Source: Alphaproteobacteria bacterium
Lineage (GTDB): Bacteria > Pseudomonadota > Alphaproteobacteria > CAAHEQ01 > UBA3637
Assembly: GCA_045605805.1 (NCBI GenBank)
Contig: JAZUQR010000020.1
Span: forward strand, 1 to 24,394
Direction: 5' to 3'
Length of the DNA stretch: 24,394 nt
A program made the position numbers and the translations under genes. The notes under the pieces were generated by a model. That model searched no databases and had not been told where the DNA came from. It saw nothing but the letters and a program-made list of their open reading frames with translations. This document shows positions 1,827 through 24,226 of the stretch, in pieces. Within the stretch, counting starts at the first letter, position 1; every line of letters begins with the position of its first letter.

Positions 1827-1832
1827 AACCCC

Positions 1833-2388: not shown

Positions 2389-2400
2389 GGAGAAGAAAAA

Positions 2401-2871: not shown

Positions 2872-2880
2872 GGGGGAACT

Positions 2881-4959: not shown

Positions 4960-4971
4960 GGAGAAAGAAAA

Positions 4972-5274: not shown

Positions 5275-5286
5275 AGGAAAAAGACA

Positions 5287-6030: not shown

Positions 6031-6033
6031 ACC

Positions 6034-6654: not shown

Positions 6655-6971
6655 TGATTAAAAAGTCCGAAAAGAAAGAATTGACACCAAAAATGACAGA
6701 CGTTCTTGTGCGTCCTGTGATTACGGAAAAGGCCATGAAGGCCGGCGAAAACGGTCAGGTTGTGTTTGAAGTGTCCAAAGACGCCACAAAACCAGCCATT
6801 AAAGAAGCTGTTGAAGCCGTATTTGGTGTAGAAGTGAAAGCAGTGAATACATTAAACCAAAAAGGAAAAGTGAAGTTTTTCCGTGGTCGCAAAGGTGTTC
6901 GCTCCGATGTAAAAAAAGCAATCATTACATTGGCCAAAGGCCAAACAATTGATGTGACAGCGGGGGTGTAA
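6654..6971 (+). CDS. rplW: 50S ribosomal protein L23
   Basis: [31 protein letters not shown] and KKAIITL; TAATG overlap with the rplD stop. Confidence 0.98.
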
Positions 6972-6972
6972 G

Positions 6973-7800: not shown

Positions 7801-7810
7801 GGAGGCATAG

Positions 7811-8095
7811 ATGACAAGATCTGTCAGAAAAGGACCGTTTGTTGATGGCTATCTGTTAAAGAAAGCTGATGAAGCCAAACAAAATGGTCGTCATGAAGTG
7901 ATTAAAACGTGGTCCCGTCGGTCCACAATCCTTCCTGATTTTGTGGGATTGACCTTTGGTGTTTATAACGGACACAAATTCATCCCAGTATTAGTGAATG
8001 AAAACATGGTTGGTCACAAGTTTGGTGAGTTCTCACCAACTCGTACCTTTACGAAACATACGGCTGCTGATGCCAAGGCAACACAGGAGAAGTAA
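7811..8095 (+). CDS. rpsS: 30S ribosomal protein S19
   Basis: [19 protein letters not shown] and [13 protein letters not shown] motifs. Confidence 0.99.
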
Positions 8096-8096
8096 A

Positions 8097-8522
8097 ATGA
8101 AAGAACAAGTAAAAACAGCTTACGCAAAAGCACGCACCATTCGTGTGTCTCCGCAAAAACTGAATTTAGTTGCCGAAACAATTCGTGGTTTGAAGGCTGA
8201 TAAAGCCTTGGCCGAATTGACCTTCTCAAAACGTCGTGTGGCTAAAGATGTAAAGAAAGTATTACAAGCTGCAATCGCCAATGCCGAACACAATTTTGGC
8301 TTGGATATTGATAAGCTTGTGGTGGCCGAAGCCTATGTAGGCAAAGCAATGGTGATGAAACGGTGGCATGCTGCTGCAAAAGGTGCAGGTCACAAGATTT
8401 TAAAGCCTTTTTCAAACTTAACAGTTGTTGTGGCTGAAAAAGAACCAGCCGCAAAAGCCGCCAAAAAACCGGCAAAAAAAGCTGTTAAAAGTGAAAAGAA
8501 AGAAGAAAAGGAGAGTGTCTAA
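8097..8522 (+). CDS. rplV: 50S ribosomal protein L22 with Lys/Ala-rich C-terminal tail
   Basis: [14 protein letters not shown] and AAIANAEHN. Start moved from 7998 to the ATG at 8097 (AGGAG upstream, 1 nt after the rpsS stop). Confidence 0.98.
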
Positions 8523-9193
8523 TGGGACAGAAAGTTAATCCAAATGGACTGCGTTTAGGCATCAACCGCACTTGGGATTCACGTTGGTTCGCTGATGCGG
8601 ATTATGGTGAAAAGTTGTTGGCTGATATTGAAATTCGCAAGTTCTTAAATGAAAAATTGGCCGGAGCTGGTATCAGCCGTATCGTGATTGAACGCCCAGC
8701 AAAGAAAGCCCGTGTGACCATTTATTGCGCTCGTCCAGGCGTGGTCATTGGAAAAAAGGGTCAAGACATTGAAACCTTGAAAAAAGATTTGGTGAAATTG
8801 GCCGGTGGTGCCGAAGTCAGCGTGAATATTGTTGAAGTTCGCAAACCGGAAACAGACGCCAAATTGGTGGCCGAAAACATTGCCGCACAGTTGGAAAAAC
8901 GCATTTCCTTCCGTCGTGCCATGAAACGTGCAGTTCAATCTGCATTGCGTCAAGGTGCTGAAGGGATTAAGGTCAGCTGCGGTGGCCGCTTGGGTGGTGC
9001 TGAAATCGCACGCACAGAATGGTATTTGGAAGGCCGTGTTCCTTTGCATACCCTTCGTGCTGACATTGATTATGGTACAGCAACAGCCTTTACAACATAT
9101 GGCACATGTGGTGTAAAAGTCTGGATTTACAAAGGCGAAGTTTTGGCTCATGATGCCATGGCGCAAGACAAACGCTTGAATGATCAACATTAA
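8522..9193 (+). CDS. rpsC: 30S ribosomal protein S3
   Basis: [24 protein letters not shown] and [14 protein letters not shown] motifs. Confidence 0.99.
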
Positions 9194-9204
9194 GGAGAGG
9201 AACT

Positions 9205-9627
9205 ATGTTACAACCAAAAAGAACAAAATTCCGTAAAGGATTTAAGGGCCGCATTCATGGTGTCGCTAAATCCGCAACAACAATTGATTTCGGTACTTTC
9301 GGTTTGAAAGCATTGGAACCTTGCCGTATGACAGCTCGCCAAATTGAAGCAGCTCGTCGTGCCATCTCACACGCCATGAAACGTCAAGGACGTATGTGGA
9401 TTCGTGTGTTCCCAGATGTACCCGTGTCTAAAAAGCCACCAGAAGTGCGTCAAGGTAAAGGTAAGGGGTCCGTTGAATACTGGATCGCTCGTGTGAAACC
9501 GGGTCGTGTTTTGTTTGAATGTGATGGCGTCAGCGAAGAAATCGCACGTGAAGCCATGCGTTTGGCCTCTGTCAAACTGCCAATCAAAACAAGATTCTTG
9601 GCAAGAACAGCAGATGAAGAGGTGTAA
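9205..9627 (+). CDS. rplP: 50S ribosomal protein L16
   Basis: [26 protein letters not shown] and GKGKG motifs. Confidence 0.99.
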
Positions 9628-9629
9628 TT

Positions 9630-9839
9630 ATGACAAAAACAAAATTTAAAGAAATCAAAGAAAAATCCGCTGCCGATTTGAAGGCAAAGGAAATTGAGCT
9701 GAAAAAAGAAGCCATGAACTTGCGCTTTCAACAAGCTCAAGGTGCTTTGAAAAACACAGCTCGCTGCCGCCAAGTGCGTCGTGAGATTGCGCAAATCAAA
9801 ACTGCGGCTTCTCAAACCGCTGCAAAGAAAGGAAAATAA
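9630..9839 (+). CDS. rpmC: 50S ribosomal protein L29
   Basis: [15 protein letters not shown] and [10 protein letters not shown]; lies between rplP and rpsQ. Confidence 0.97.
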
Positions 9840-9841
9840 AC

Positions 9842-10075
9842 ATGCCAAAACGTGTTTTACAAGGTGTTGTGGTCAGCACAAAAATGGATAAATCCGTGGT
9901 GGTTCGTGTGGAACGCCGGGTGATGGATCCTGTTTATAAGAAATATGTCAAACGCAGTAAGAAATATACAGCGCATGACGAAAAGAATCTGTGCAATGTC
10001 GGTGATGTTGTTCAGATTATTGAGTGCCGCCCGATTTCCAAGACAAAAACTTGGGAAGTTGTGACGGAAAAATAA
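9842..10075 (+). CDS. rpsQ: 30S ribosomal protein S17
   Basis: [20 protein letters not shown] and [11 protein letters not shown] motifs. Confidence 0.99.
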
Positions 10076-10098
10076 CTGAATCAAGAAAGGAAAACAAC

Positions 10099-10467
10099 AT
10101 GATTCAAGTAGAAACAAACCTTGAAGTAGCTGATAACTCCGGTGCCCGGAAAGTTCAGTGCATTAAGGTCATTGGCGGTGCCGGACGTCGCTATGCTTCT
10201 GTCGGAGATGTGATTATCGTTTCCGTAAAAGATGCAATGCCAAACGGCAAAGTCAAAGCAGGGGAAGTGCAACGTGCTTTAATCGTTCGTACGAAGAAAG
10301 AAATCCGTCGTGAAGATGGTTCTGCCATTCGTTTTGATTCTAACGCAGTTGTACTTGTTGATAAACAAGGTGAGCCCATCGGAACACGTATCTTTGGGCC
10401 AGTGACACGTGAATTGCGTGCCGGTGGCTTTGTGAAAGTGATGTCCTTGGCTCCGGAGGTTTTGTAA
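10099..10467 (+). CDS. rplN: 50S ribosomal protein L14
   Basis: [24 protein letters not shown] and SLAPEVL; start set at ATG 10099 after AAAGGA. Confidence 0.99.
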
Positions 10468-10468
10468 A

Positions 10469-10783
10469 ATGAAACTGAAACTGAAAAAAGGCGATAAAGT
10501 AATCGTCACAACAGGAAAAGATAAAGGCAAAACCGGTGAAATCACAACCGTTTTTCCAAAAGAAAACAAAGTGATTATTGGTGGGTTGAACATGGTGAAA
10601 CGCCATACAAAACCATCCCAAGAATCTGCCGGTGGTATCGTTTCCAAAGAAATGCCAATACATGTGTCCAATGTGGCCTTGGCTGATCCAAAAACAGGAA
10701 AAGCAACACGTGTTGGTTATAAAGTTGAAGACGGACGCAAAGTGCGCTTTGCCAAAAAGTCCGGTGAAGTAGTTGATAAATAA
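10469..10783 (+). CDS. rplX: 50S ribosomal protein L24
   Basis: KOW motif [18 protein letters not shown] and EMPIHVSNV. Confidence 0.99.
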
Positions 10784-10793
10784 GGAGTGACTC

Positions 10794-11345
10794 ATGGAAA
10801 CAAGATTGAAAAAATTATATGATGAAGTGATTGCTCCGAATTTAATCAAAGAATTCGGCTATAAGAACAAAATGGAAGTTCCAAAGCTCACAAAAATCGT
10901 CCTGAACATGGGCGTTGGTGAAGCAGCTGAGGATAAAAAAGCGATTGAATTCGCAGTGAAAGACATGGAAGCTATTTCCGGTCAAAAAGCTGTGACAACA
11001 TTTGCACGCAAATCCATTTCTACATTTAAGTTGCGTGACGGCATGCCAATTGGTTGTAAAGTGACGCTTCGCAAAGAAAAAATGTATGAATTTTTGGATC
11101 GCTTGATTACAATCGCAATGCCACGCATTCGTGACTTCCGTGGTATTTCTGGGAAAAGCTTTGATGGACATGGAAACTATGCCATGGGCGTGAAAGAACA
11201 AATTATTTTCTTGGAAATCAACTATGATGCAGTAGACGCAGTTCGTGGTATGGATATCATTATCTGTACAAGCGCCAAAACCGACAAAGAAGCAAAAGCT
11301 TTGTTGGCTGGTTTCGGAATGCCCTTTAAGAAGGAAGGAAAATAA
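10794..11345 (+). CDS. rplE: 50S ribosomal protein L5
   Basis: [22 protein letters not shown] and PRIRDFRG motifs. Confidence 0.99.
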
Positions 11346-11347
11346 CC

Positions 11348-11653
11348 ATGGCAAAATTATGTCAAATCAATCGTAATGAAAAACGCGAAAAATTGGTGAA
11401 AAAATACGCCGGTAAGCGTGAAGCTTTGAAAAAGGTTATCAGTTCAAAAGAATCTTCTCCGGAAGAAGTCTTTGAAGCCTCAATTGAGCTTGCTAAACTT
11501 CCTCGCAATTCGTCCAAAGTTCGTTTGCACAATCGTTGTGAATTGACAGGGCGTTCAAAGGGATATTACAGAAAATTAAAACTCAGCCGTATTCAACTGC
11601 GCAAATTGTCCAACGAAGGACAAGTGCCTGGTATGACAAAGTCGAGCTGGTAA
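11348..11653 (+). CDS. rpsN: 30S ribosomal protein S14 (101-aa zinc-independent form)
   Basis: [14 protein letters not shown] and [11 protein letters not shown]; no paired CxxC motifs. Confidence 0.98.
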
Positions 11654-11665
11654 GGAGAAGAAAAC

Positions 11666-12064
11666 ATGTCTATGACAGATCCTTTGGGCGATATGCTGAC
11701 TCGTTTGCGTAACGGGGGCATGGCCAAAAAAGAAAGCGTAACAGTTCCTGCTTCTAACTTGCGTTTGAACGTATTGGAAGTTTTGAAACGGGAAGGTTAT
11801 ATCCGTGGCTTTGAAAAAGTGAATGTCCGTACAGGAATTGACGAAATCAAAGTTGAGTTAAAATACTATGAAGGTGAACCGGTAATTAAACAAATTGAAC
11901 GTGTTTCTAAACCGGGCCGTCGTGTGTATTCCAAAGTAAAAGATTTACCCAAGTTCTATAATGGTTTGGGCATCTATGTATTATCAACCCCATCGGGCGT
12001 TATGTCCGATCACGAAGCTCGTCAAGCCAACTTAGGTGGCGAAGTTTTGTGCAAGGTGTTCTAA
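11666..12064 (+). CDS. rpsH: 30S ribosomal protein S8
   Basis: [22 protein letters not shown] and GGEVLCKVF motifs. Confidence 0.99.
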
Positions 12065-12077
12065 GGAGGAAAGGCAA

Positions 12078-12611
12078 ATGTCAAGAATCGGAAAACATCC
12101 TGTAAAAGTGGTTGATGGCGTGAATGTCAACATTACAGAAAAAGAAATTATCGTCAAAGGTAAATTGGGCGAATTAAAGACACACATTCCAGCGGGCGTT
12201 TCCGTGACAATGGAAAACAACGAAATCGTTGTGAAACCATTGAACGATACAAAAGAAGCAGCCGCTATGTGGGGAACAATGCGTCAAAACATCAATAACT
12301 TGATGAAAGGCGTGACAGAAGGTTTCTCCAAAGATTTGGAATTGGTGGGCGTAGGTTATCGTGCGCAAGTGTCCGGTCAAAAATTAAAGTTGACATTGGG
12401 CTTCAGTCATGATATAGATTACACTCTGCCAGAAGGTGTGAAAGCAACTGTAACCGATCAAACAAAATTGAACATTTCCGGCATGGATAAACAATTAGTT
12501 GGTCAAGTGGCTGCTGAAATTCGTTCCTATCGTTCGCCAGAACCATATAAAGGCAAAGGCGTGAAATATGCGAATGAAACAATTTTACGCAAAGACGGTA
12601 AGAAGAAATAA
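12078..12611 (+). CDS. rplF: 50S ribosomal protein L6
   Basis: MSRIGK, GVGYRA, LGFSH and PEPYKGKG; start set at ATG 12078 after AAGGAGG. Confidence 0.99.
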
Positions 12612-12625
12612 GGGGAACTGAAAAA

Positions 12626-12976
12626 ATGAAAAAACAAACTACATTTGACAGAAGAAAAGCGCGTGTGCGTTATGATTTGAAGAAAAAAGCGGGCGATCGT
12701 GTTCGTTTGTCCGTCTATCGTTCTGAAAAGAATATCTATGCGCAAATTATTGATGATAACAATCAAACGACTTTGGTCAGTGCTTCTTCCAAAGAAAAAG
12801 GTTTCAAAGAAAAAGGTTCTACCTTGGCTGGTGCAAAAGCCGTTGGTGCGGCCATTGCCGAAAAAGCTTTGAAAGCTGGAATCAAAGAAGTTGCATTTGA
12901 TCGTGGTGGATATCAGTTCCATGGCCGTATTAAAGCCTTGGCTGACAGCGCTCGTGAAGCCGGTTTATCTTTTTAA
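12626..12976 (+). CDS. rplR: 50S ribosomal protein L18
   Basis: [15 protein letters not shown] and [17 protein letters not shown] motifs. Confidence 0.99.
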
Positions 12977-12989
12977 GTAGGAGTGTAAA

Positions 12990-13598
12990 ATGACAGAAGA
13001 AATCATTGAAAAACAAGAAAAACAAGAAAAGAAACGCGCTCCTAAAAAGGACCGTGCTCCTCGTGAAGATAAAACAATGGATGAATTCATTGACCGTGTT
13101 GTGCACATCAATCGTGTTTCTAAAACAGTGAAAGGCGGACGGAATATGTCCTTTGCCGCATTGGTGGTTGTCGGTGACCAAAAAGGTCGCATCGGTTTTG
13201 CCCATGCAAAAGCAAAAGAAGTGCCTGATGCCATTAAAAAAGCCAACGAATTGGCCCGTCGTCACTTGGTGCGCATTCCATTGCGTGAAGGTCGTACCTT
13301 GCACCACGATGTTATCGGGCGTTTTGGGGCCGGAGAAGTGACATTGCGCACAGCTCCTGCTGGTACCGGAATCATTGCCGGTGGTCCAATGCGTGCCGTT
13401 TTTGAAGTGTTGGGCATTCAGGATGTGGTTGCAAAATGCACAGGATCCAACAACCCACACAACATGATTCGTGCGACATTCAAAGCCTTGTTAGACGAAC
13501 ATTCTCCACGTGCTGTGGCTGCTCGTCGTGGTAAGAAAGTCGGTGAAATTGTTGGTAACCGTGAAGGCAAAACAGCCGAAGAAGCTGTTGCTGAATAA
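12990..13598 (+). CDS. rpsE: 30S ribosomal protein S5
   Basis: [20 protein letters not shown] and [13 protein letters not shown] motifs. Confidence 0.99.
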
Positions 13599-13609
13599 GG
13601 AGAAAAAAC

Positions 13610-14143
13610 ATGAAACTGAATGAAATTAAAGATAACAAAGGCGCAAGAAAATCTTTGATGCGTGTCGCCCGTGGTGTCGGCAGCGGAAAAGGTCGTACAG
13701 CTGGGCGTGGTTTCAAAGGTCAAAAATCCCGTACAGGCGTTTCTATTAACGCTTTTGAGGGAGGCCAAATGCCTGTTTATCGCCGTTTACCAAAACGTGG
13801 ATTTAAGAACATTTTCCGTAAATCCTTTATTGGCATCAATGTGGGTGATTTACAAAAGGCAATTGATGCCAAGATTTTGGCTGCCGATAAGGAAATCAAT
13901 GCCATTGCATTGATGGAAGCCGGTTTGGTGAAAAAAGTACAAGATGGCGTACGCTTGCTGGGTAATGGCGAATTGAGTGCCAAAATCACAGTGCGTGTTG
14001 TCGGTGCAACTGAAACCGCCAAAAACGCTGTGGAAAAAGCCGGTGGCGAATTGATTGTTGAACCAATCAAAAAAACTGTCTTGGTAAAAGGCCAAAAAAC
14101 TTCTAAAAAAGAAGTGAAAAAACCAGTTAAAAAAACAAAGTAA
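13610..14143 (+). CDS. rplO: 50S ribosomal protein L15 with Lys-rich C-terminal tail
   Basis: [14 protein letters not shown] and [17 protein letters not shown] motifs. Confidence 0.99.
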
Positions 14144-14162
14144 ATAAGGGAGGGTGAATACG

Positions 14163-15491
14163 ATGTCTTTGGCTGAAAAAATGGTTGCAAATATGGATAT
14201 GTCCGCATTTTCAAAAGCAACGGATTTGCAAAAAAGGCTTTGGTTCACCCTTTTGGCTTTGATTGTTTTCCGGATTGGAACATATATTCCATTTCCGGGG
14301 ATCAATCCAACCGTCTTGAACGAGTTTTTCTCGTCTAATCAGGGTGGTTTGATTGGTATGTTTAACGCCTTCACAGGCGGTGCGTTGTCACGCATGTCAA
14401 TCTTTGCCTTAAATATAATGCCGTACATTTCGGCCTCAATTATTATCCAATTAGGGGCAAGCGTGATTCCATCTTGGATGGCTTTGCGAAAAGAAGGTGA
14501 AGCCGGTATGCGTAAAATCAATCAGTATACACGAGCCTTGACCATTTTAATCACGGTAGTGCAAGCCTATTTTATGGCCTTAGCGTTGGAACGGGGCGGA
14601 GCAGTTATTATGCCGTCAAGCACATTGTTTGAACTGTCTACAGTGGTTTCGTTGCTGGGTGGAACAATGTTCGTGGTTTGGTTGGGTGAACAAATCACTG
14701 CCCGAGGTATTGGCAACGGCACATCTTTGTTGATTATGGTTGGTATCGTTGCAAATATCCCCTCAGCCTTAATTCGTATGTTGGAAGATGGACGAGCAGG
14801 GGCTATTTCAACCTTTACAATCTTGGTCGTAGGTGCCATGATTTTTGGTTTGATTTATGTGGTGGTGATGTTTGAACGGGCTCAACGCCGTATCGTTATT
14901 CAATATCCTAAACGCCAAGCGGCCGGCCGTTTAATGCAAGGGGTCAGCTCGCACCTGCCATTAAAAATCAATCCAACGGGTGTAATGCCCCCCATCTTTG
15001 CCAGTGCTTTGTTGGCTTTGCCTGTTGGAATTGCTCAGTATTTTTCGCAAAATACAGAATCTGATTTTTGGAGTAAAACAGCGCTGTATTTAACCCCGGG
15101 TCAATGGATTTATATGGTGACATTTGCGGTGTTAATTATGTTCTTTACATTCTTCTATACAGGGATTCAATCTAATCCAAAAGAAACAGCGGAAAACTTG
15201 AAACGCCAAGGGGGCTTTGTTGCCGGCATTCGTCCTGGTGAAAACACAGCCCGCTATCTGGACTATGTGATTACTCGTTTAACCGTGTTGGGGGCAATTT
15301 ATTTAACAGTTTTATGCATCTTGCCAGAATTTTTAATTGCTACCTTTAACATTCCATTCTTTTTGGGTGGCACCACATTGTTGATTGTTGTGTCTGTTAT
15401 TTTGGAAACAGTGAACCAAATTCAATCACATATGGTGGCATATCAGTATGAAGGATTGATTAAAAAAGCCAAATTAAAGGGGAGATTATAA
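14163..15491 (+). CDS. secY: Preprotein translocase subunit SecY
   Basis: SIFALNIMPYISASII, WLGEQITARGIGNG, GIRPG and GGTTLLIVV motifs with multiple TM helices. ATG 14163 preferred over GTG 14154 because GGGAGG lies at 14148-14153. Confidence 0.99.
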   Translation: MSLAEKMVANMDMSAFSKATDLQKRLWFTLLALIVFRIGTYIPFPGINPTVLNEFFSSNQGGLIGMFNAFTGGALSRMSIFALNIMPYISASIIIQLGASVIPSWMALRKEGEAGMRKINQYTRALTILITVVQAYFMALALERGGAVIMPSSTLFELSTVVSLLGGTMFVVWLGEQITARGIGNGTSLLIMVGIVANIPSALIRMLEDGRAGAISTFTILVVGAMIFGLIYVVVMFERAQRRIVIQYPKRQAAGRLMQGVSSHLPLKINPTGVMPPIFASALLALPVGIAQYFSQNTESDFWSKTALYLTPGQWIYMVTFAVLIMFFTFFYTGIQSNPKETAENLKRQGGFVAGIRPGENTARYLDYVITRLTVLGAIYLTVLCILPEFLIATFNIPFFLGGTTLLIVVSVILETVNQIQSHMVAYQYEGLIKKAKLKGRL

Positions 15492-16159
15492 TGGCAAAAT
15501 ATAATAGAATCGTCTTACTTGGGCCACCAGGGTCCGGAAAAGGCACACAAGGGGCAATTTTGGCCGAACGCATGGGTATTAAAGCTATTTCGGCAGGTGA
15601 GTTGTTGCGTGCCGAAGTGAAAACAGGTTCAGAACTGGGAAAAGAAATCGCTGCCCGTATTGATAATGGTCAATTGGTTTCGGCCGATTTGATTGCCCGC
15701 CTAATGACACAGGCCTTTTTGGCACCCGAAAACGCCAACGGATTTATTTCGGATGGCTTTCCTCGTTCCATTGAACAAGCAGAAATTTTTGAAACAATCC
15801 AATCCAAACCAGAGTTTGAAGGCAAAAGAATTGATTTGGCTTTGTTGATAGATGTGCCAGATGATTATATTTTGGAACGGATTTTGGGACGTTGCCAATG
15901 CGCACAATGTGGCACGTTCTATCATAACAAGTTTAAGCCCACAAAAATCGACGGTGTATGCGATGTATGTGGGAGTAAAGAATTTGCCAAACGGGCGGAT
16001 GACACTGAAGAAACAGTGGTATCTAGACTCCGCGTGTACCGTGAGGCAACGGCTCCACTGATACCTTACTACGAAAACAAGGGGCTATTGGTTCGTGTTG
16101 ATGGGATGGGACCCATTGATGCGGTAAGTGAAAAGATAAAAGAAATAGTAGGATACTAA
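15491..16159 (+). CDS. adk: Adenylate kinase with 4-Cys metal-binding LID
   Basis: GPPGSGKGTQ P-loop, DGFPR, RADD; LID contains CAQC and CDVC. Confidence 0.98.
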   Translation: MAKYNRIVLLGPPGSGKGTQGAILAERMGIKAISAGELLRAEVKTGSELGKEIAARIDNGQLVSADLIARLMTQAFLAPENANGFISDGFPRSIEQAEIFETIQSKPEFEGKRIDLALLIDVPDDYILERILGRCQCAQCGTFYHNKFKPTKIDGVCDVCGSKEFAKRADDTEETVVSRLRVYREATAPLIPYYENKGLLVRVDGMGPIDAVSEKIKEIVGY

Positions 16160-16167
16160 TTTTGTGC

Positions 16168-16196
16168 TTGACAAGTTGCGAGAAATAGTTTATAAT
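16168..16196 (+). promoter_or_regulatory. Sigma70 promoter of the alpha operon
   Basis: TTGACA (16168-16173), 17-nt spacer, TATAAT (16191-16196). Confidence 0.92.
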
Positions 16197-16274
16197 TCCC
16201 ACTCGTAATCCAAGCCATTGCTTTCAAAGCGATTGGTTTTTGCTGTTTTAATTTAGAAATATGGAGAAATAACC

Positions 16275-16652
16275 TTGGCACGTATTGCTGGTGTAAATAT
16301 TCCGACAGATAAATTGGCCGTCATTGGTTTGACGTACATTTATGGTATTGGCCGGAAAAAAGCTGAAGAAATCATCAATAAAGCAGGCATTCCGATGACA
16401 CGTCGTGTGAATGAACTGACAGATGATGAAACATTGAAAATTCGTGAAATCATTGATAAAGACTATCAGGTGGAAGGTGACTTGCGCCGTGAAGTCTCTA
16501 TGAATATTAAACGCTTGATGGATCTGGGATGCTATCGTGGATTGCGTCATCGTAGGGGATTGCCTGTGCATGGTCAACGCACACATACAAACGCTCGTAC
16601 TCGTAAGGGGAAGGCTGTGGCAATTGCCGGTAAAAAGAAAGTGACGAAATAA
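16275..16652 (+). CDS. rpsM: 30S ribosomal protein S13 (TTG start)
   Basis: [17 protein letters not shown] and [26 protein letters not shown]; GGAG upstream of the TTG. Confidence 0.99.
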
Positions 16653-16662
16653 GAGGTAGAAC

Positions 16663-17055
16663 ATGGCAGAAAAGAAAGTTGTCAAAACAAAAAGACGTGA
16701 CAGAAAGAATGTGGTGGCCGGTGTGGCACACATTAATTCAACATTCAATAACACATTGGTGACAATTACGGATCCAAACGGAAATGCAATTGCATGGTCC
16801 TCATGTGGCGCAAAAGGCTTCAAAGGTTCCCGCAAATCAACCCCATATGCTGCACAGGTGGCCGCAGATGATGCTGCCCGCAAAGCAATGGAACACGGTA
16901 TGAAAAGCGTGGATATCGTTGTGATGGGCCCAGGCTCGGGGCGTGAATCTGCAATTCGTGCATTTAATGCTGTTGGAATGGTGGTGACATCCATCAAAGA
17001 TGTGACACCGTTGCCGCATAACGGATGTCGTGCCCGCAAACGTCGTCGTGTTTAA
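16663..17055 (+). CDS. rpsK: 30S ribosomal protein S11
   Basis: [20 protein letters not shown] and [11 protein letters not shown] motifs. Confidence 0.99.
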
Positions 17056-17078
17056 TTTTTAACAAAAGGAAGCATACC

Positions 17079-18101
17079 ATGATGATTCAAAAAAATTGGC
17101 AGGAATTGATTAAGCCTGAACGGGAAAAACAAGTCATTGAACAAATCGTGCCGGGCTACAAGGCCAAAATGGTAATTGAGCCATTGGAACGTGGTTTTGG
17201 TTTCACTTTGGGTAATGCGTTGCGTCGTGTCTTGCTGTCTTCATTGCAAGGTGGCGCAGTGACTGGAATTAAAATTGCAGGTGTTCAACATGAGTTTTCT
17301 TCCATCCCCGGTGTTCGGGAGGATGTGACGGAAATCGTGTTAAATATCAAAAACTTGGCATTGAAAGTGGATGCCGAAGGCCCTCAACACATTTATTTGA
17401 ATGCAAAAGGCCCTGGTGTTATCACTGCCGGACAAATTGTCACAAATCACACTATTGAAGTGATGAATCCTGATTTAGTGATTTGTACATTGGAAAAAGA
17501 TGCCACAATTGAAATTGAAATGATTGTGAACACAGGGAAGGGCTATGTCACAGCAGCACAAAATCGTCCTGCTGATTGTCCAATCGGCCTGTTGCCTATT
17601 GACGCAATCTATTCTCCGGTAAAATCGGTCAGCTATGAAGTTGAAAATGCCCGTGTGGGACAACAAACAGACTATGATAAATTGTCTTTAATTGTTGAAA
17701 CAAATGGCGTTTTAACACCGGAAGATGCTGTGGCTTTATCTGCCCGCATTTTGCAAGATCAATTGAAAGTGTTCATCAATTTTGAAGAGCCAGAAGAAGT
17801 GAGCGCAGAAGAAAAAATCGCTGAATTGCCGTTCAATAAAAACTTGTTGCGTAAAGTGGACGATATGGAATTGTCTGTCCGTTCTGCAAACTGTTTGAAA
17901 AACGACAATATCGTGTACATTGGTGATTTGGTTCAAAAATCCGAATCAGAAATGTTGCGCACACCAAACTTTGGTCGCAAATCTTTGAATGAAATCAAAG
18001 AATTGTTAACCGCTTATGATTTGCATTTCGGTATGCAAATTGAAAATTGGCCGCCTGAAAACTTGGAAGAATTGGCTTCTTCCATCAGTTTGGACGACTA
18101 A
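17079..18101 (+). CDS. rpoA: RNA polymerase subunit alpha
   Basis: [32 protein letters not shown] and [13 protein letters not shown]; start at ATG 17079 (or 17082) after AAAGGA. Confidence 0.99.
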
Positions 18102-18114
18102 GTAAAATAAAAAT

Positions 18115-18177
18115 CGTGAGGGGATAAGCCCCTCACGTCCTTTTCTTTACACGCTGACGTAAGGGTGGAGAAAAAGG
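18115..18177 (+). promoter_or_regulatory. Two tandem hairpins in the rpoA-rplQ spacer (candidate L17 leader or attenuator)
   Basis: CGTGAGGGG-ataag-CCCCTCACG perfect 9-bp stem, then CCTTTTCTTTAC pairing with GTGGAGAAAAAGG. Confidence 0.55.
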
Positions 18178-18227
18178 CTTTAACAATCAGCTTTGCACCG
18201 CAAGGCTTTTAACGAAAGGAAAAGAAA

Positions 18228-18782
18228 ATGCGTCATGGATTTAAGAAAAGAACTTTGAATAAAAAAATCGCACACCGTCGGGCTATGTTTGCCAATCTGG
18301 CAAATGCTTTGATTAAGCACGAACAAATTAAAACAACATTACCAAAAGCAAAAGAACTGAGTCCTATCTTTGAAAAGCTCATTACAAAAGCCGAAGACGG
18401 AACATTGCACGCTCGCCGTCAGTTGATTGCTTTCCTTCGTGATGAAGTTATGGTTGAAAAGATGATGACCACATTGGTCAAACGGTATGAAAACCGCAAT
18501 GGTGGTTATGTGCGTGTGTTAAAGGCTGGTTTCCGCTTTGGCGACTGCGCCCCAATGGCTATCGTTGAATTGGTTGATCGTGATGTGACTGCCAAAGGTC
18601 AAGATTCCGGTAAAATCGTGGAAGTGGAAGCCGAAGCCCCAAAAGCCGAGGAAAAGAAAGCCGCTCCAAAAGCTGAAAAAGTGACAAAGGTTAAAAAAGA
18701 AACAGCACAAAAAGCCGTGAAATCTGTGAAAACAAAAGCCCCAACAATGGTGCGTCGTAGCAGCACAGGCAGTGGTTCGTAA
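18228..18782 (+). CDS. rplQ: 50S ribosomal protein L17 with long C-terminal extension
   Basis: [18 protein letters not shown] and [20 protein letters not shown]; about 55 aa Lys/Ala/Glu-rich tail. Confidence 0.99.
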
Positions 18783-18799
18783 GAACGAATCTTGAAATT

Positions 18800-18832
18800 A
18801 AATCCCAATCGGTTTCGGTTGGGATTTTTTTT
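18800..18832 (+). terminator. Rho-independent terminator of the alpha operon
   Basis: AAATCCCAATCG-gttt-CGGTTGGGATTT stem running into a T8 tract, between convergent rplQ and mutY. Confidence 0.85.
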
Positions 18833-18906: not shown

Positions 18907-19881
18907 TTACTTTATTTTTTTAATAACTTTTTGCATTAAAGTGGAAAAAGGATAGTGTGAAAAATCATCAAACGCAACCCATACAGCATTATCTGGCCAT
19001 GCCGGTGGCTCAGAAAACACAACTTGTAAAGTCAATTTGAAGTGCGTAAAAACATGGGTAATGGTTGGATGCTTGCCTGACAAAAGAGGGGACTCCTGCC
19101 ATGGAAACTCCCATAACCCATGAAGCAACCCCTTTTCACTGCGTTGCCGAATCAAGTAAGCCCCTTTGTTATTTTGTACCACATAAACTTGCCCAGTGAC
19201 AATTTTTTTCTCTAATTTTTTAATCTTCGGGATAGATTCTTGAATCCCTTTTTCCTTGGCGACACAGGTATCAGCCCAAGGACACAACTCACATCTGGGC
19301 CGAGCAGGCGTGCAAACAGTTGCCCCTAAATCCATAATCGCACTGGCATAATCCGCCCCTTCCTCTTGACTGGTCAGCTGTACCGCCAACGGATAAATCT
19401 CTTTGGCCGAAACCTCGTCTGTAATACCATACAACCGAGAAATCACCCGTATGACATTGCCATCAACAACCGTTTCAGGCATATTAAAAGCAAAACAGCA
19501 AATGCTGGATGCAGAATAGGGGCCAATTCCAGGTAATTTAAGTAAAGCCTCTCGGTCCGCAGGTAATTGTCCACCATATTTTTCCATCAAAACTTTGGCG
19601 CATTCGTGAATCTTTCTGGCCCGAGTGTAATAGCCTAATCCTTGCCACATCAACAAAACATCCCCCAAATCGGCCATAGCCAAATCCGCCACCGTTGGAA
19701 AACGCTTCATCCACCTGTCAAAATAATCAATCACCGTGGCAACAGTTGTTTGTTGAAGCATAATCTCACTTATCCAAACGGCATACGCATCAAAATGAGC
19801 CCCGCCTTTAACACGCCAAGGTAAATCACGCCCGTTTTTTTTATACCAAGCCAATAACTCAGCCGTCAGATTCTGTGCCAT
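18907..19881 (-). CDS. mutY: A/G-specific adenine glycosylase MutY
   Basis: RDLPWR, WISEIMLQQT, WQGLGYYTRAR, HhH LPGIGPYSA, VDGNVIRV, [4Fe-4S] motif C-x6-C-x2-C-x5-C, C-terminal GLWEFP and HVFTHF. Start set at ATG 19881, overlapping the upstream gene by 23 nt. Confidence 0.97.
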   Translation of the reverse strand: MAQNLTAELLAWYKKNGRDLPWRVKGGAHFDAYAVWISEIMLQQTTVATVIDYFDRWMKRFPTVADLAMADLGDVLLMWQGLGYYTRARKIHECAKVLMEKYGGQLPADREALLKLPGIGPYSASSICCFAFNMPETVVDGNVIRVISRLYGITDEVSAKEIYPLAVQLTSQEEGADYASAIMDLGATVCTPARPRCELCPWADTCVAKEKGIQESIPKIKKLEKKIVTGQVYVVQNNKGAYLIRQRSEKGLLHGLWEFPWQESPLLSGKHPTITHVFTHFKLTLQVVFSEPPAWPDNAVWVAFDDFSHYPFSTLMQKVIKKIK

Positions 19882-21784
19882 CTTGTGGTGTTTCTTCCAA
19901 AGGTTCAATAGAGTTGTCTTCTGCCAATTCTTGTGGCGGTTTAATATCCGGAACAGGATCTTCCTCTTGTTCAGTTTCGGCCGCAGCCTGAGCAATCATT
20001 TCTTTTTCAGGCGATTGTGCCACTTCTGGCACAACTTCTTTTGTGCCGGCTTTGGCATATACCCGCAATTTGCGCCCAGAATTGTCCACATTTAAGAAGA
20101 CTTCTTGCCCCTGATGAATGCGGTCTTGCATCACCAATAAAGACAGAGGATTTTCCACTTGTTCTTGAATTAAACGCTTCAAGGCACGCACACCAAACTT
20201 GCTTGTAAAAACCTCATCTACAAACCATTTCTTTGCCGAATCATGAACCACAACCGTATAACCAGCATTTTTAGCCCGTTTCAACAGCTTGTTCAGATGA
20301 ATTTCTACAACCTTTAACAAATCTTCTTCGGTCAGTTGGTGGAAAGAAACAATATCATCAAAACGATTCAAAAACTCTGGTCTGAAATAATCTGTCAGCT
20401 TTTCCACCCGTTGATAACTTGGCAGATTTGCCCCCACATTAGAGGTGCAAATGATAATCGTATTTCTGAAATCAATAGTCGTTCCTTTGCTGTCTGTTAA
20501 ACGCCCTTCATCCAACAGTTGAAGCATCAAGTTCAAAATATCCAAATGCGCTTTTTCAATTTCGTCAAATAACACAACCTGAAACGGTTTTAACCGCACA
20601 GACTCAGTCAATAATCCGCCTGCCTCAAACCCCGGAGAACCAGGGGGAGGGCCAATCATCCGAGCCACAGAAGACCTTTCCATATACTCGGACATATCTA
20701 AGCGCAACAAAGCCGTTTCATCATTAAACATAAAGTCGGCCAACGATTTGGCCAATTCGGTTTTACCCACACCAGTTGTACCAATAAATAAGAACGAGCC
20801 AATCGGGCGATTCGGATCTTGCATCCCCGACCGAGAGCGGCGAATGGCATCTGCCACCACTTTAACAGCAGCATCTTGCCCCACAACCCGCTTGCGTAAA
20901 GTATCTTCCGCCCGAGCCATCCTTGCCTTGTCTTCGGCATCCACCTTGTCCACGGGAATCCCAGTCCAATCAGAAATGGTCCGATTGCAAAAAGTGGGTG
21001 TTAAAATGTTTGCCGAAGAATCAACTTCACCCCGAGCAATATCCATCATCAATAAGCTGGCGGAATCATCCAACAAATCCAATGCCTTTTCGGGAAAATA
21101 GCGTTGCTTGACATAGCGAGCCGTCAGTTGACAAGCAATCTTCACCGTTTCGGCCGGAATCTGAATATCATAGTGTTGTTCATACTTTCCTTTTCTGGCT
21201 TGCACAATCTCAATCGTTTCATCCAAAGAAGGTTCTTCCAACAATAAAGGCTGTAAACACCCCATAACAGCGGTATCTTTTTCAACTGTTGTCACATAAG
21301 TTTGTTTGTCTGTTTCCAAAATACAGTTGATTTTACCAGAAATCAAAGCCAATTTCAAAAATTTTGCAGCATCTTTGTTTTCAGGCGAGGTATCCATATA
21401 AACCAAAAAGCTCATGTCTTTCAAATACAAAACCTTTTGGCCTTGGCTGTCAATAATGGATTGAAAAACTTGTTTGATTAAAGAGGAATAATCGCTGTCA
21501 TTTTGGGCATCCAGCATCAAAGCCCCCACATTCAGGCCAACAACCTCACGATTTTGCATATAATCAGGTGCATTTTCACTGGCCATAAAGGAAATAAGCC
21601 CTTCAATCAAAGCAGATTTACCAATGCCAGCCGGCCCAACTACAACAGGATTATTTTTATTCTCCCGCAACAAAACATGAATCAGGCGTTCCAATTCCTT
21701 ATCTCGTCCAATCAAAATGGGCAATTTTCCTTCTTTGGAGAAATCAGTGTAATTGATTAAATACTTATTCGCATCAAAAGCCAT
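19859..21784 (-). CDS. ClpB-derived two-ring AAA+ protein with no N-domain or middle domain and a degenerate first ATPase domain
   Basis: D1: IGRDKE, KNNPVVVGPAGIGKS. D2: RRSRSGMQDPNRPIGSFLFIGTTGVGKTELAK, DMSEYME, FDEIEKAH, FRPEFLNR. 641 aa, RBS AAAGGA. Confidence 0.9.
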   Translation of the reverse strand: MAFDANKYLINYTDFSKEGKLPILIGRDKELERLIHVLLRENKNNPVVVGPAGIGKSALIEGLISFMASENAPDYMQNREVVGLNVGALMLDAQNDSDYSSLIKQVFQSIIDSQGQKVLYLKDMSFLVYMDTSPENKDAAKFLKLALISGKINCILETDKQTYVTTVEKDTAVMGCLQPLLLEEPSLDETIEIVQARKGKYEQHYDIQIPAETVKIACQLTARYVKQRYFPEKALDLLDDSASLLMMDIARGEVDSSANILTPTFCNRTISDWTGIPVDKVDAEDKARMARAEDTLRKRVVGQDAAVKVVADAIRRSRSGMQDPNRPIGSFLFIGTTGVGKTELAKSLADFMFNDETALLRLDMSEYMERSSVARMIGPPPGSPGFEAGGLLTESVRLKPFQVVLFDEIEKAHLDILNLMLQLLDEGRLTDSKGTTIDFRNTIIICTSNVGANLPSYQRVEKLTDYFRPEFLNRFDDIVSFHQLTEEDLLKVVEIHLNKLLKRAKNAGYTVVVHDSAKKWFVDEVFTSKFGVRALKRLIQEQVENPLSLLVMQDRIHQGQEVFLNVDNSGRKLRVYAKAGTKEVVPEVAQSPEKEMIAQAAAETEQEEDPVPDIKPPQELAEDNSIEPLEETPQDGTESDG

Positions 21785-21798
21785 TTTCTAAATCCTTT

Positions 21799-22737
21799 CT
21801 AAAATCCAAAAGTATTGCGTGGTGAGCGTTCATCTTCGGCATCTGCTGCAGCAAAATAATCTTCATTTGACAATTTGACATCCTCTAAAATTAAGGTGCC
21901 ATCATAGGAAGAACCCGTCATACTTGCTTTCATGTATCCTTTTGCCGGATCGCCCCAAACATATTCTTCCCCATCATCCGGATAGCCGTATTTGTCAAAC
22001 ACAGCATTCCAAAACTCTGTTTGACGCAACCTTTTTTTTATCATGTTGACTCGGCTAGAATTAAGAGAAGTGTCGCCTTTGTTCAGATAAACAATTTTAT
22101 AAAGTACATTGTCCGTGGCATTGGAAGTAAAGTAAAGATGTATCGTTTCATTCTTGCGAGTTAAAACGGCTTCGCCAATATATCGTGTATTTTCCTGACA
22201 AGCCAAATCCTTGATACATTTTGCAAGATTGTCTGGTGTCACAACACCCATTTTTTGACATTGATAGTGATAGGTGGTGCTGTAAAACATGGGTACACGC
22301 TCTTGGGTTAAAGTTGTGCGAAAGCCCCTTTGTAAGGCTTGTTTTAAGATAACAGAAGCCGATTCGCCCAAATTAAAACCGGCAATTTCAAAATCAGACA
22401 CATCTCGCAACGGAGCTTCGGGTGACTTTGGCGAGATAGCAGTTTCAATCGGTGCAGGGGTTGTTCCAGACAAATCTATGTGCGTAGACGGTATCTGAGG
22501 CATAGGCTGCGAGGCTTCAGGGGGAGGAGGTAAGGAAGGCGCTTCATTGCTTAAATTGATGCGCAAATTCGGTGCCGGTGGGGGCGTGACACGAATGCTT
22601 TCCAAGGGTTCAGCAGACCGCCCCAACAAAGGCTCTTCTTCCTCTTCTTCAAAAAATAAAGAAACATCCAAATCGTCTTGTGCATAGGCAAAACCCGCAT
22701 AAAATAAAAAACTGCCCAATAAAAGTTGTTTTAACAT
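21799..22737 (-). CDS. Hypothetical exported protein
   Basis: Signal-peptide-like MLKQLLLGSFLFYAGFAYA|QD, acidic and Pro-rich N-terminal region, then a globular-looking domain with three Cys. Alternative start at 22752. Ends 14 nt before the Clp-like gene. Confidence 0.8.
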   Translation of the reverse strand: MLKQLLLGSFLFYAGFAYAQDDLDVSLFFEEEEEEPLLGRSAEPLESIRVTPPPAPNLRINLSNEAPSLPPPPEASQPMPQIPSTHIDLSGTTPAPIETAISPKSPEAPLRDVSDFEIAGFNLGESASVILKQALQRGFRTTLTQERVPMFYSTTYHYQCQKMGVVTPDNLAKCIKDLACQENTRYIGEAVLTRKNETIHLYFTSNATDNVLYKIVYLNKGDTSLNSSRVNMIKKRLRQTEFWNAVFDKYGYPDDGEEYVWGDPAKGYMKASMTGSSYDGTLILEDVKLSNEDYFAAADAEDERSPRNTFGF

Positions 22738-22760
22738 TTTCCCCTTTTTCATTTTTTTTC

Positions 22761-22789
22761 TTGACCTTGTCAACATTTCATTATACATT
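22761..22789. promoter_or_regulatory. Overlapping divergent promoter region
   Basis: Plus strand TTGACC (22761-22766)-N17-TACATT (22784-22789) toward mlaA; minus strand TATAAT at 22785-22780 toward the hypothetical-clp-mutY operon; palindrome TTGAC-ctt-GTCAA at 22761-22773. Confidence 0.5.
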
Positions 22790-22842
22790 AGCATATAACA
22801 AAAATAGTTTTAACGAAAAACTTTAAGAAAAGCAAGTGAAAA

Positions 22843-23625
22843 ATGGTAAAAAAGAAGTGGATTATATTTTTTTGTTGTGTATGGATGTTTGCCGGATGTG
22901 CCACAAAGCCAACTGATCCGGAAGAATTGAAGTTGTATTACGAAACAAACGACCCATTAGAACCGATGAACAGAGGGATACATGCGTTTAATCAAACGGC
23001 AGACAAATATGTGTTGGCGCCTGTTGCAAAAGGCTATCGGGCAACAGTGCCTCAGTTCCATCGTGATTCGGTGAGCAATTTTTTCAATAACATGAAACAG
23101 CCTGTTTTTTTTGTCAATGCTCTGTTGCAAGGGCAGGGGAAGGATATGGCGGCCATCTTGGGACGCTTTGTCATAAATACAACATTCGGTTTTTTTGGCT
23201 TGTTTGATGTGGCCAGTGAGGCAGGTATCCGTAATCCCGAAAACGATTTTGGGCAAACGCTTGCCAAATGGGGCTGGCAAGGCGATGGCGGCCCATTTTT
23301 GATGCTGCCTGTTTTGGGGCCGTCCAGCGTGCGTGATACAATCGGTTCTGGTGTGGATGCTATGGCCCAACCATTGGGATGGGCTCTGTGGGATGAAACA
23401 GCGCTCAGTTATGGCGTGGCAGGCCTCAGCGGTGTTGATCAATACGAAGGAGCTTTGAATTTGATGGAGGATATGAAACGGATGTCAACGGATTATTACG
23501 CCACTATGCGCACGATGTATCGTCAAAATCGCCACAAGAAAATAAAATCTGTGTTAAATCAAAACGAAACCAAAGAAAAACCCAATTATGAAGTGGATTT
23601 TTCGGATATAGAATGGGAGGATTAA
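22843..23625 (+). CDS. mlaA: VacJ/MlaA family lipoprotein
   Basis: Lipobox FAG|C, NDPLEPMNR, RFVINTTFGFFGLFDVA, DFGQTLAKWG and GPFLMLPVLGPSSVRD. Confidence 0.95.
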   Translation: MVKKKWIIFFCCVWMFAGCATKPTDPEELKLYYETNDPLEPMNRGIHAFNQTADKYVLAPVAKGYRATVPQFHRDSVSNFFNNMKQPVFFVNALLQGQGKDMAAILGRFVINTTFGFFGLFDVASEAGIRNPENDFGQTLAKWGWQGDGGPFLMLPVLGPSSVRDTIGSGVDAMAQPLGWALWDETALSYGVAGLSGVDQYEGALNLMEDMKRMSTDYYATMRTMYRQNRHKKIKSVLNQNETKEKPNYEVDFSDIEWED

Positions 23626-23626
23626 A

Positions 23627-24226
23627 ATGAAAAAAATAATAACTTTATGCGCAATCTTATTCACATCATTGGCGGTGTATGCGGCTAATCCAGCCGTAGA
23701 TTTTATTGATAAATTGGCCGATAAAATCTTGCAGGATGTTGTGTCAGCAGACAAAACGCAAACGGAAAAAGAAACGCTTTTTCGCCAAGCGTTTGTGGAA
23801 GCGGTTGATTTGAAAAGCGTTGGCCAATTCGTGCTGGGAACAGCTTGGAAAAAGGCAACCGAAGAAGAAAAGAATAATTTTTTGAATGCGTTTACCGATT
23901 TAACTGTAAAAACATGGGGAGAGAGGTTTGATTTGTACACAGGTCAGGAAATAATCTTTGAAGGAAGCCGAAATGCAGAACGCAAACAAATCTATGTGGA
24001 CAGTGTGATTCAAGATAAAGAACCGGTAGAGGTGATTTGGCGTTTAAGGCCGTATCAAGATACATATAAAATCGTGGATATTATCGTAGAAGGGGTCAGT
24101 ATGGTATCCACATACCGAAACGATTATCGTTCCTTCTTGCAACAAAATGGCAACAGTGTGTCGGTATTGACTCAGGAACTGATTCGTAAAAGCGAAGCCT
24201 TTTCAAAAAAAGATAAAAATGGTTGA
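23627..24226 (+). CDS. mlaC: MlaC/Ttg2D family periplasmic phospholipid-binding protein
   Basis: Signal peptide, GQFVLGTAWKKAT and YKIVDIIVEGVSMVSTYRNDY; 1 nt after mlaA. Confidence 0.93.
   Translation: MKKIITLCAILFTSLAVYAANPAVDFIDKLADKILQDVVSADKTQTEKETLFRQAFVEAVDLKSVGQFVLGTAWKKATEEEKNNFLNAFTDLTVKTWGERFDLYTGQEIIFEGSRNAERKQIYVDSVIQDKEPVEVIWRLRPYQDTYKIVDIIVEGVSMVSTYRNDYRSFLQQNGNSVSVLTQELIRKSEAFSKKDKNG

Follow-up and report, generated by a model that had tools for sequence, protein, structure and literature searches.

What does a ClpB-like protein do when it lacks the parts with which ClpB works? This question is raised by a gene for a short Hsp100 protein in the 24,394-nt contig JAZUQR010000020.1 of the genome of an uncultured, gut-associated alphaproteobacterium (assembly GCA_045605805.1); the term window is used here for this whole stretch of DNA. 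Hsp100/Clp proteins are threading motors, in which the pore-loop tyrosines grip the substrate, while the middle domain (M-domain) and N-terminal domain (N-domain) regulate and select substrates. The short Hsp100 protein, termed the Clp paralog below, has no N-domain, no M-domain and no pore tyrosine. Its first ATPase ring (D1) is degenerate, and its second ring (D2) has a complete set of catalytic residues. Phylogenetic and comparative results indicate that the Clp paralog is a member of an old, so far uncharacterised paralog family from alphaproteobacterial ClpB, and its job is probably different from that of any characterised relative.

The Clp paralog has the general layout of the class I Hsp100/Clp superfamily, that is, two tandem AAA+ modules with AAA_lid_9 after D1 (Pfam match at residues 187-249, 58 bits) and with AAA_2 (residues 326-478, 190 bits) and ClpB_D2-small (residues 484-562, 66 bits) in D2. 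Its best sequence match in the PDB is Thermus thermophilus ClpB (1qvr, 485 bits). When it is aligned to solved ClpB chains, residues 6-250 correspond to ClpB 154-397 and residues 268-575 to ClpB 528-848. This alignment shows that the N-domain is absent, with residue 6 of the Clp paralog corresponding to ClpB residue 154 (1qvr) or 162 (E. coli-type chains). A Pfam search of the 641-aa protein gives no match to Clp_N, and only 8-22 residues precede the conserved Y12 in all of the 125 family representatives, which are the base of the motif counts given below; 34 genomic orthologs of the order to which the window belongs are used as a second set. The M-domain is absent as well, with residues 250 and 268 corresponding to ClpB 397 and 528, and the coiled coil of ~130 aa is gone. 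The distance between the two Walker A motifs is 276-285 aa in 125/125 representatives (285 aa in the Clp paralog), compared with ~398-409 aa in ClpB-type and 334-340 aa in ClpC-type representatives.

D1 retains its Walker A motif, but most of its other functional motifs are lost. Walker B reads I[IV]LFIDE in 20/20 ClpB and 12/12 ClpA sequences, whereas in the Clp paralog the first Asp is replaced by Lys and the catalytic Glu by Asp. The canonical pore motif K[YFL]R or RYR is replaced by QND, with small polar residues between acidic ones, and the replacement is polar or acidic in 125/125 representatives. The Arg fingers, which are RR in 20/20 ClpB and 12/12 ClpA sequences, are missing in the window's order, but one or both are kept in some distant lineages of the family. 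In some members from other taxonomic families the Ser/Thr of the P-loop in D1 is lost as well (GxGK is followed by K, N, R or H), and one lineage retains RR. This result indicates that the degeneration of D1 was progressive and that nucleotide binding by D1 is not universally required.

D2, in contrast, is catalytically intact as judged from its motifs. The Walker A Lys, the Walker B Asp and Glu, the sensor-1 Asn, the Arg finger and the sensor-2 Arg are each present in 125/125 representatives, and D2 has the ClpB-type signatures RRSRSG[LM]QDPNRPIGSFLF, GRLTD and LKR. Its pore loop is altered, to GSPGF from the GYVG[YF] of ClpB and ClpA. The position of the gripping Tyr is Ser in 71 and Thr in 50 of the 125 representatives, and the next residue is Pro in 123. 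An aromatic residue is present three positions after the lost Tyr in every representative (Phe in 120, Tyr in 5). This residue is not a family-specific gain, because the same position is Tyr or Phe in canonical ClpB and ClpA. The [IVM]GF tripeptide of the ClpP-docking loop, searched for between TSN and RPEF, is found in 0/34 family orthologs, as compared with 12/12 alphaproteobacterial ClpA sequences; the TSN-to-RPEF segment is 17 aa long and is modelled as a short turn followed by a helix (residues 456-466). A comparison of conservation between the family and ClpB, in which the evolutionary depths are unmatched, points to a gain of constraint at Y457, Q458, R459 and Y466 and indicates that D1 is less conserved than D2.

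The C-terminal tail (residues 580-641) contains 19 Asp/Glu residues against 3 Lys/Arg residues, together with 8 Pro, and is probably disordered, with a predicted local distance difference test score (pLDDT) below 50 at residues 581-594 and 603-641. Its length varies from 1 to 240 aa across the 125 representatives. This variable acidic tail is regarded as accessory, because several lineages are without it. An alignment of 70 rows gives a confident AlphaFold2 model of the protein (mean pLDDT 85.6), in which two AAA+ modules are joined directly; superposition of the model on protomers of ClpC and ClpB hexamers gives template-modelling (TM) scores of 0.78-0.82. A complex prediction with three copies of D1 (residues 1-258) and ATP gives a score of 0.00 and a mark of 0.42, but the controls did not fold, so that this prediction has no bearing on ring assembly. 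These results bear out the description in the initial annotation, which had reported a protein starting directly at D1 without Clp_N, D1 losses (VLYLKD, an altered pore loop, LETD and AVMGCLQ) beside a surviving GPAGIGKS, a short linker in place of the M-domain, an intact ClpB-like D2 with GSPGF in its pore, no IGF/IGL loop, an acidic and probably disordered tail, and an intact open reading frame (ORF) with a ribosome-binding site; this ORF lies on the minus strand, starts with ATG and is preceded by AGGA 8 nt upstream.

For the family to which the Clp paralog belongs, a word-indexed search gives more than 120 clusters of 66-100% identity and 574-794 aa; where the clusters are named, they are named 'ATP-dependent Clp protease ATP-binding subunit' and assigned to uncultured Alphaproteobacteria. 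This label is probably wrong, because the protein does not contain the ClpP-docking loop. An exhaustive profile-free search of 1.8 billion representatives at 50% identity reduces the family to five sequences (1005 bits, then 615-651 bits), followed by a sharp fall to 482 bits for generic ClpB/ClpC. The defining motif states are common to 125/125 representatives and 34/34 genomic orthologs, and members from other taxonomic families agree, so that the substitutions that the initial annotation proposed to follow in orthologs are indeed fixed. A full-text literature search, with subscription-only papers outside its scope, finds no description of the family. A contig scan was dominated by generic ClpB; the matches without an M-domain that were inspected (L078, L080 and L099) have N-domains and canonical motifs and are placed outside the family. 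L099, a gene of a Phascolarctobacterium metagenome-assembled genome (positions 4001-5698), encodes an M-domain-less ClpB/C-like protein with an N-domain, canonical pore loops and FINDLH as D1 Walker B; in this other phylum, the catalytic pair of D1 seems to have been lost independently.

The ratio of nonsynonymous to synonymous substitution rates (dN/dS) was determined by the Nei-Gojobori method for 11 ortholog pairs, and the overall ratio is computable for 10 of them. It is 0.02-0.06 overall, 0.03-0.08 for D1 and 0.08-0.32 for the tail. For the least saturated pair (dS 0.89), which is the only one not near saturation, it is 0.045 overall, 0.045 for D1, 0.009 for D2 and 0.32 for the tail; saturation of dS in the remaining pairs inflates these ratios and does not deflate them. 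This result indicates that the catalytically 'dead' D1 is strongly constrained and that D2 is extremely constrained. None of the complete orthologs examined has an interrupted reading frame. The order of the window consists of a single taxonomic family with 16 genera, and the gene is present in 79 of its 80 genomes, the one miss being a 75%-complete genome. In a class-wide sample of 401 Alphaproteobacteria (~208 families), the gene is present in 16 genomes of 8 families, and these genomes are 0.9-2.5 Mb in size. Metagenomes from 10 studies of animal gut and faeces contain near-identical DNA.

The trees of D2 and D1 (66 rows each) indicate where the family comes from. In both, the family is monophyletic with a support of 100, on stems of 1.4 and 2.3 substitutions per site respectively, and groups with ClpB; the split from ClpA has a support of 100 for D2 and 99 for D1. 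When 73 diverse ClpB-type, ClpC-type and M-less representatives (top-scoring matches, classed by Walker A spacing) are added, the family is sister to a clade of alphaproteobacterial ClpB at a node with a support of 88. With the ClpC-type rows included, the family stays beside alphaproteobacterial ClpB in the D2 tree, apart from most of the ClpC-type sequences. When members and ClpB sequences of the other positive families are added, the family forms one 24-row clade (support 100), which is nested among alphaproteobacterial ClpB and is not paired with the ClpB of the window's own order. This result indicates that the duplication is older than the split of at least seven families. All these trees come from a quick search, and the stem of the family is long (0.5-2.3 substitutions per site). 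As a separate observation, canonical ClpB of the window's family (f1; L030-L035) and of its sister family f39 (L175) has only 17-18 residues from TSN to [RK]PEF, whereas other alphaproteobacterial ClpB has 29-31. An explanation of the shared 17-aa segment by duplication within the order is rejected: in four other lineages that carry the family, ClpB has the long segment, and the family is not the partner of the order's ClpB in the tree.

Assignment to a known class gives a mixed picture. As placed by the trees, the Clp paralog is by descent in the ClpB branch of class I Hsp100, yet among the features that define ClpB it keeps the D2 signature alone: it has the phylogenetic placement but no N-domain, no M-domain, no catalytic D1 and no pore Tyr in D1 or D2. 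Of the features that define ClpA, the N-domain and the IGF/IGL loop are absent and the ClpS partner is not found; also absent are the half-length M-domain spacing (334-340 aa, against 285 aa here) of ClpC/ClpE/ClpL and the ClpP loop of ClpC/ClpE. None of the curated NCBIfam models reaches its cut-off: ClpB (TIGR03346) gives 590.4 bits against 1232.1, ClpA (TIGR02639) 506.5 against 993.15, TssH (ClpV) 432 against 885, and ClpK and ClpG 440 and 425 against 1900. Thus, the ClpB origin proposed by the initial annotation is supported by both trees, its statement that the losses are not random decay agrees with the low dN/dS and with the motif states fixed in the family, and its expectation that the protein lies outside the characterised Clp subfamilies holds for these models.

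The occurrence of other Clp proteins separates the possible functions further. The window's genome (1.21 Mb, 98.85% complete) has ClpP, ClpX and DnaK above the cut-offs, but in this genome neither ClpB nor ClpA is found above its cut-off and ClpS is not found, so the Clp paralog is the only ClpB/ClpA-type protein found there. ClpB above the cut-off is present in 0/12 searched genomes of the genus. In 61 sampled genomes of the family, canonical ClpB is above the cut-off in 39, fragmentary in 3 and not found in 19, and ClpA is above the cut-off in 0/61. In other families, 4/5 positive genomes hold canonical ClpA and a ClpB-length frame together with the short Hsp100. Since the Clp paralog coexists with ClpA and ClpB elsewhere and is kept where neither is found, it would be a third paralog that replaces neither of them and outlasts both in genome reduction. 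A protein search of 21 genomes of the genus gives another two-ring Clp-like frame only in G020 (88% complete). Four genomes of the genus (G003, G004, G006 and G015; e.g. G004:C10:56411-57268) have an extra frame of ~620-640 aa with a lone ClpB-D2-like AAA+ module, which is 25-32% identical to the D2 of the Clp paralog and is not present in the window's genome.

Taken together, these features make it fairly probable that the Clp paralog is a neofunctionalised, D2-driven hexamer with a pseudo-ATPase D1, which works independently of DnaK and ClpP as a dedicated remodeller of a housekeeping client through low-grip or surface contacts. Hexamer assembly and ATP hydrolysis are predicted from the intact trans-acting Arg finger, sensor and Walker motifs of D2. 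The protein would form a two-tier homo-hexamer in which D2 alone hydrolyses ATP, and D1 would keep the ring together as a pseudo-ATPase tier that either binds nucleotide or is purely structural. Precedents for a tier that serves assembly or as a scaffold are D2 of NSF and the D1 tiers of p97 and Pex1/6. In the absence of the M-domain the hexamer would not be switched on by DnaK, and in the absence of the IGF loops it would not feed ClpP. With a polar or acidic pore in D1 and a Ser/Thr-Pro pore in D2, neither tier has its gripping tyrosines, which makes processive threading of the ClpB type unlikely. Instead, conformational cycling driven by D2 may remodel or release one or more specific housekeeping clients by low-grip or non-threading contacts. 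Such contacts are favoured because Torsins, which are eukaryotic Clp/Hsp100 relatives without aromatic threading loops, are thought not to thread, this absence being taken as a sign of non-threading (PMC5425593). The likeness to Torsins is confined to the absence of aromatic pore loops; it is a functional analogy, with homology claimed only at the superfamily level, and Torsins are single AAA+ modules that have no Arg finger of their own and need activators, whereas D2 of the Clp paralog keeps its Arg finger, sensor-1 and sensor-2.

The most serious competitor of the dedicated remodeller is a general unfoldase or disaggregase, that is, a minimal DnaK-independent ClpB similar to ClpG or ClpL, in which the Phe/Tyr of G[ST]PG[FY] grips the substrate and which replaces the lost ClpB. 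All of the 12/12 ClpB-less genomes of the genus retain the Clp paralog, as do 7 others in the family that give no ClpB match. The D2 set and the aromatic residue at +3 are complete in 125/125 representatives, and the fold of the Clp paralog superposes on substrate-bound ClpB/ClpC protomers; D2 is the main motor of ClpB. This explanation is nevertheless rather unlikely. ClpG and ClpL require an aggregate-binding domain, but the Clp paralog has no N-domain or other domain of this kind, and the ClpG and ClpK models score far below their cut-off, as given above. The aromatic residue at +3 is shared with canonical ClpB and ClpA, where the first Tyr grips, and nothing new substitutes for that Tyr; the D1 pore is acidic or polar throughout the family; and a non-redundant role is suggested by the canonical ClpB that accompanies the Clp paralog in 39/61 genomes of the family and also occurs with it in other families. 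The possibility that the protein is a ClpP partner replacing ClpA, docking by a non-canonical element such as LP[ST]Y[QK]R at the site of the IGF/IGL loop of ClpA, is very improbable. It would account for the presence of ClpP in the window's genome and the absence of ClpA above the cut-off in the family, for the ClpA-colinear architecture (a single alignment stretch, residues 6-564 to ClpA 169-732) and for the family-specific conservation of Y457, Q458 and R459 at the loop-equivalent site, but the [IVM]GF tripeptide is absent from all 34 orthologs, the 17-aa segment is modelled without an extended loop, both domains group with ClpB and not ClpA, and canonical ClpA coexists in 4/5 genomes of other families. 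A diverged ortholog of the missing ClpA is rejected on the same grounds, by the D1 and D2 trees and by this coexistence.

The initial annotation had considered a regulatory subunit that mixes into ClpB hexamers, and a subunit of this kind, regulatory or poisoning, in hexamers of canonical ClpB or another AAA+ protein would agree with the ClpB-like folds and ring-interface elements of D1 and D2 and with the 39/61 genomes of the family in which ClpB coexists. We regard it as very improbable, because no ClpB or ClpA is found in the nearly complete genome of the window, because ClpB is above the cut-off in none of the 12 genomes of the genus while the gene is kept there at a dN/dS of ~0.05, and because another two-ring Clp-like frame is present in only 1/21 genomes of the genus. 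The Clp paralog is not an obligate ClpB subunit, since ClpB is not found in the window's genus. A decaying ClpB paralog on its way to a pseudogene would explain why many canonical motifs are gone and why D1 is less conserved than D2, but it is refuted by the dN/dS of D1 and of the whole gene and by the substitutions fixed in 125/125 representatives; the frame is intact in all complete orthologs examined, and the family spans 8 taxonomic families. The interpretation in the initial annotation is therefore upheld in part: the ClpB origin, the absence of decay and, as far as the sequence shows, the lack of the elements of a standard DnaK-coupled disaggregase and of a protease partner (no M-domain, N-domain, pore tyrosines or IGF/IGL loop) stand, but the ClpB-mixing subunit does not.

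Several points weigh against a dedicated remodeller that works by low-grip contacts. Retention of the gene exactly where ClpB is lost fits a replacement disaggregase equally well. The aromatic residue at +3 may take the place of the lost paddle, and threading may then continue. The exact attachment of the family inside ClpB is uncertain, given the quick-search trees and the long stem, the comparison of conservation with ClpB suffers from its unmatched depths, and the genomic context names no partner for the Clp paralog. A more radical proposal, which we put forward tentatively as a possibility, is that the Clp paralog is a bacterial non-threading Hsp100, in which translocation is given up and hydrolysis by D2 clamps, pries apart or releases a specific essential complex from the surface of the ring.

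Comparison with known systems shows which combination of features is peculiar to the family. The Clp paralog resembles ClpB/Hsp104 in its two-tier AAA+ layout, its ClpB D2 signatures, its ClpB_D2-small and the grouping of both domains with ClpB. It differs in lacking the N-domain, the M-domain and hence the coupling to DnaK, the D1 catalytic Glu, the D1 sensor-1 and the pore Tyr, in the loss of the D1 Arg fingers in the window's order, and in having G[ST]PG[FY] where the D2 pore of ClpB has GYVG. It resembles ClpA in its colinear M-domain-less D1-D2 arrangement, which aligns in one stretch, but has no N-domain and no IGF/IGL loop, comes from a genome in which ClpS is not found, and coexists with true ClpA elsewhere. 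Skd3 (human CLPB) is a disaggregase based on a single ClpB-D2-type module, and its PDB chains match residues 281-453 of the Clp paralog with 191 bits; in Skd3, ankyrin repeats take the place of the D1 tier, and the pore-loop tyrosine is kept. ClpG/ClpK and ClpL are Hsp100 proteins that work without DnaK and have N-terminal aggregate-binding domains, an M-domain and canonical pore loops, all of which are missing in the Clp paralog. Among published systems, the one closest in kind is ClpI of Actinomycetota, a third class of double-ring Clp unfoldases that was defined bioinformatically and of which some sub-classes have no ClpP-binding motif (PMC10149685). ClpI is similarly a lineage-restricted and phylogenetically distinct extra Hsp100 class recognised from sequence alone, but it is reported to keep intact ATPase modules, unfolding/translocation motifs, an M-domain and an N-domain (PMC10149685), whereas the family described here keeps only the D2 ATPase.

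The locus itself is compact. The gene is preceded by an ORF whose stop codon (21799-21801) lies 14 nt from it, and the start of mutY sits inside its 3' end with an overlap of 23 nt. On the minus strand, a promoter and terminator scan shows no terminator-like site between the upstream ORF, the Clp gene and mutY; the scan gives 7 promoter-like sites against 8.6 expected, and no regulatory signal is recognised. The upstream ORF encodes a signal-peptide-like N-terminus, a Pro-rich linker and a C-terminal domain without a Pfam family, and is found in this position in 23/33 Clp-paralog loci of the order. The mutY gene is downstream on the same strand in 31/33 of these loci. This linkage is also kept in the sister family f39 but is absent at the loci of f19, f108 and f24, which indicates that it is inherited synteny and no clue to function; a functional coupling to mutY, considered as a candidate, is rejected because the linkage is confined to the order and f39. 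In one metatranscriptomic run, contigs match two parts of the gene (225 nt with no mismatches and 158 nt with 2 mismatches), and such libraries can contain DNA. A stem-loop is seen at 18800-18827 between the convergent L17 and mutY genes. The plus strand of the window has a long run of ORFs at 192-18782, of which the genes checked at its end are those for SecY, adenylate kinase, RpoA and L17, and on the other side of the Clp locus it has MlaA and MlaC at 22843-24226; the rest of the window is ordinary. The positions of the features of the locus and of the Clp paralog are listed in Table 1.

Table 1. Features of the Clp paralog and of its locus (positions are those of the window; residues are those of the protein)
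Feature	Position	Strand	Basis or remark
Short Hsp100 coding sequence, 641 aa + stop	19859..21784	minus	ATG start; Pfam AAA_2, ClpB_D2-small, AAA_lid_9
Ribosome-binding site AGGA, 8 nt 5' of ATG	21793..21796	minus	read from sequence
mutY, probably in the same operon	18907..19881	minus	Pfam HhH-GPD + NUDIX_4
Upstream ORF, up to 331 aa, probably co-transcribed	21799..22794	minus	signal-peptide-like N-terminus; no Pfam family
D1 tier, residues 1-250, degenerate AAA+ module	21035..21784	minus	alignment to ClpB 154-397; confident model; dN/dS 0.045
D1 Walker A GPAGIGKS, residues 50-57	21614..21637	minus	Lys kept 125/125; GxxGxGK[ST] in 34/34 of the order
D1 pore-loop region, residues 87-104, K-Y-R replaced by Q-N-D	21473..21526	minus	aromatic at Tyr position 0/125
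D1 Walker B remnant VLYLKD, residues 118-123	21416..21433	minus	Asp at Glu position 125/125; first Asp kept 7/125
D1 sensor-1 region LETD for GATT, residues 156-159	21308..21319	minus	alignment
D1 Arg-finger positions Gly-Cys, residues 175-176	21257..21262	minus	Arg 1/125 and 3/125
Short linker, residues 251-267, at the place of the ClpB M-domain	20984..21034	minus	alignment; Walker A spacing
D2 tier, residues 268-575, catalytically complete (by motifs) ClpB-type AAA+ with D2-small	20060..20983	minus	alignment, motifs; dN/dS 0.009
D2 Walker A GTTGVGKT, residues 335-342	20759..20782	minus	Lys 125/125
D2 pore loop GSPGF for GYVG[YF], residues 382-386	20627..20641	minus	aromatic at Tyr position 0/125
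D2 Walker B VVLFDE, residues 403-408	20561..20578	minus	Asp and Glu 125/125
D2 sensor-1 TSN to Arg finger RPEFLNR, residues 447-474	20363..20446	minus	no IGF/IGL loop; family motif LP[ST]Y[QK]R
D2 sensor-2 GVRALKR, residues 531-537	20174..20194	minus	Arg 125/125
Acidic, Pro-rich, probably disordered C-terminal tail, residues 580-641	19862..20047	minus	composition; model pLDDT

These results describe a natural Hsp100 family that has no pore tyrosines, no M-domain, no N-domain and an inactivated D1, yet is very strongly selected, and that provides, in some gut-associated Alphaproteobacteria with reduced genomes, the only ClpB/ClpA-type protein found. If the Clp paralog is still a protein remodeller, it shows how far a minimal D2-only motor without aromatic paddles can reach; if it does something else, it represents a new function for the fold. 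With a D1 dN/dS of ~0.05 in the absence of the catalytic residues, the family is also a natural experiment on pseudo-ATPase tiers. A non-threading Hsp100, if true, would be a prokaryotic counterpart of Torsin-type mechanisms that has outlasted ClpA, ClpS and ClpB in genome reduction.

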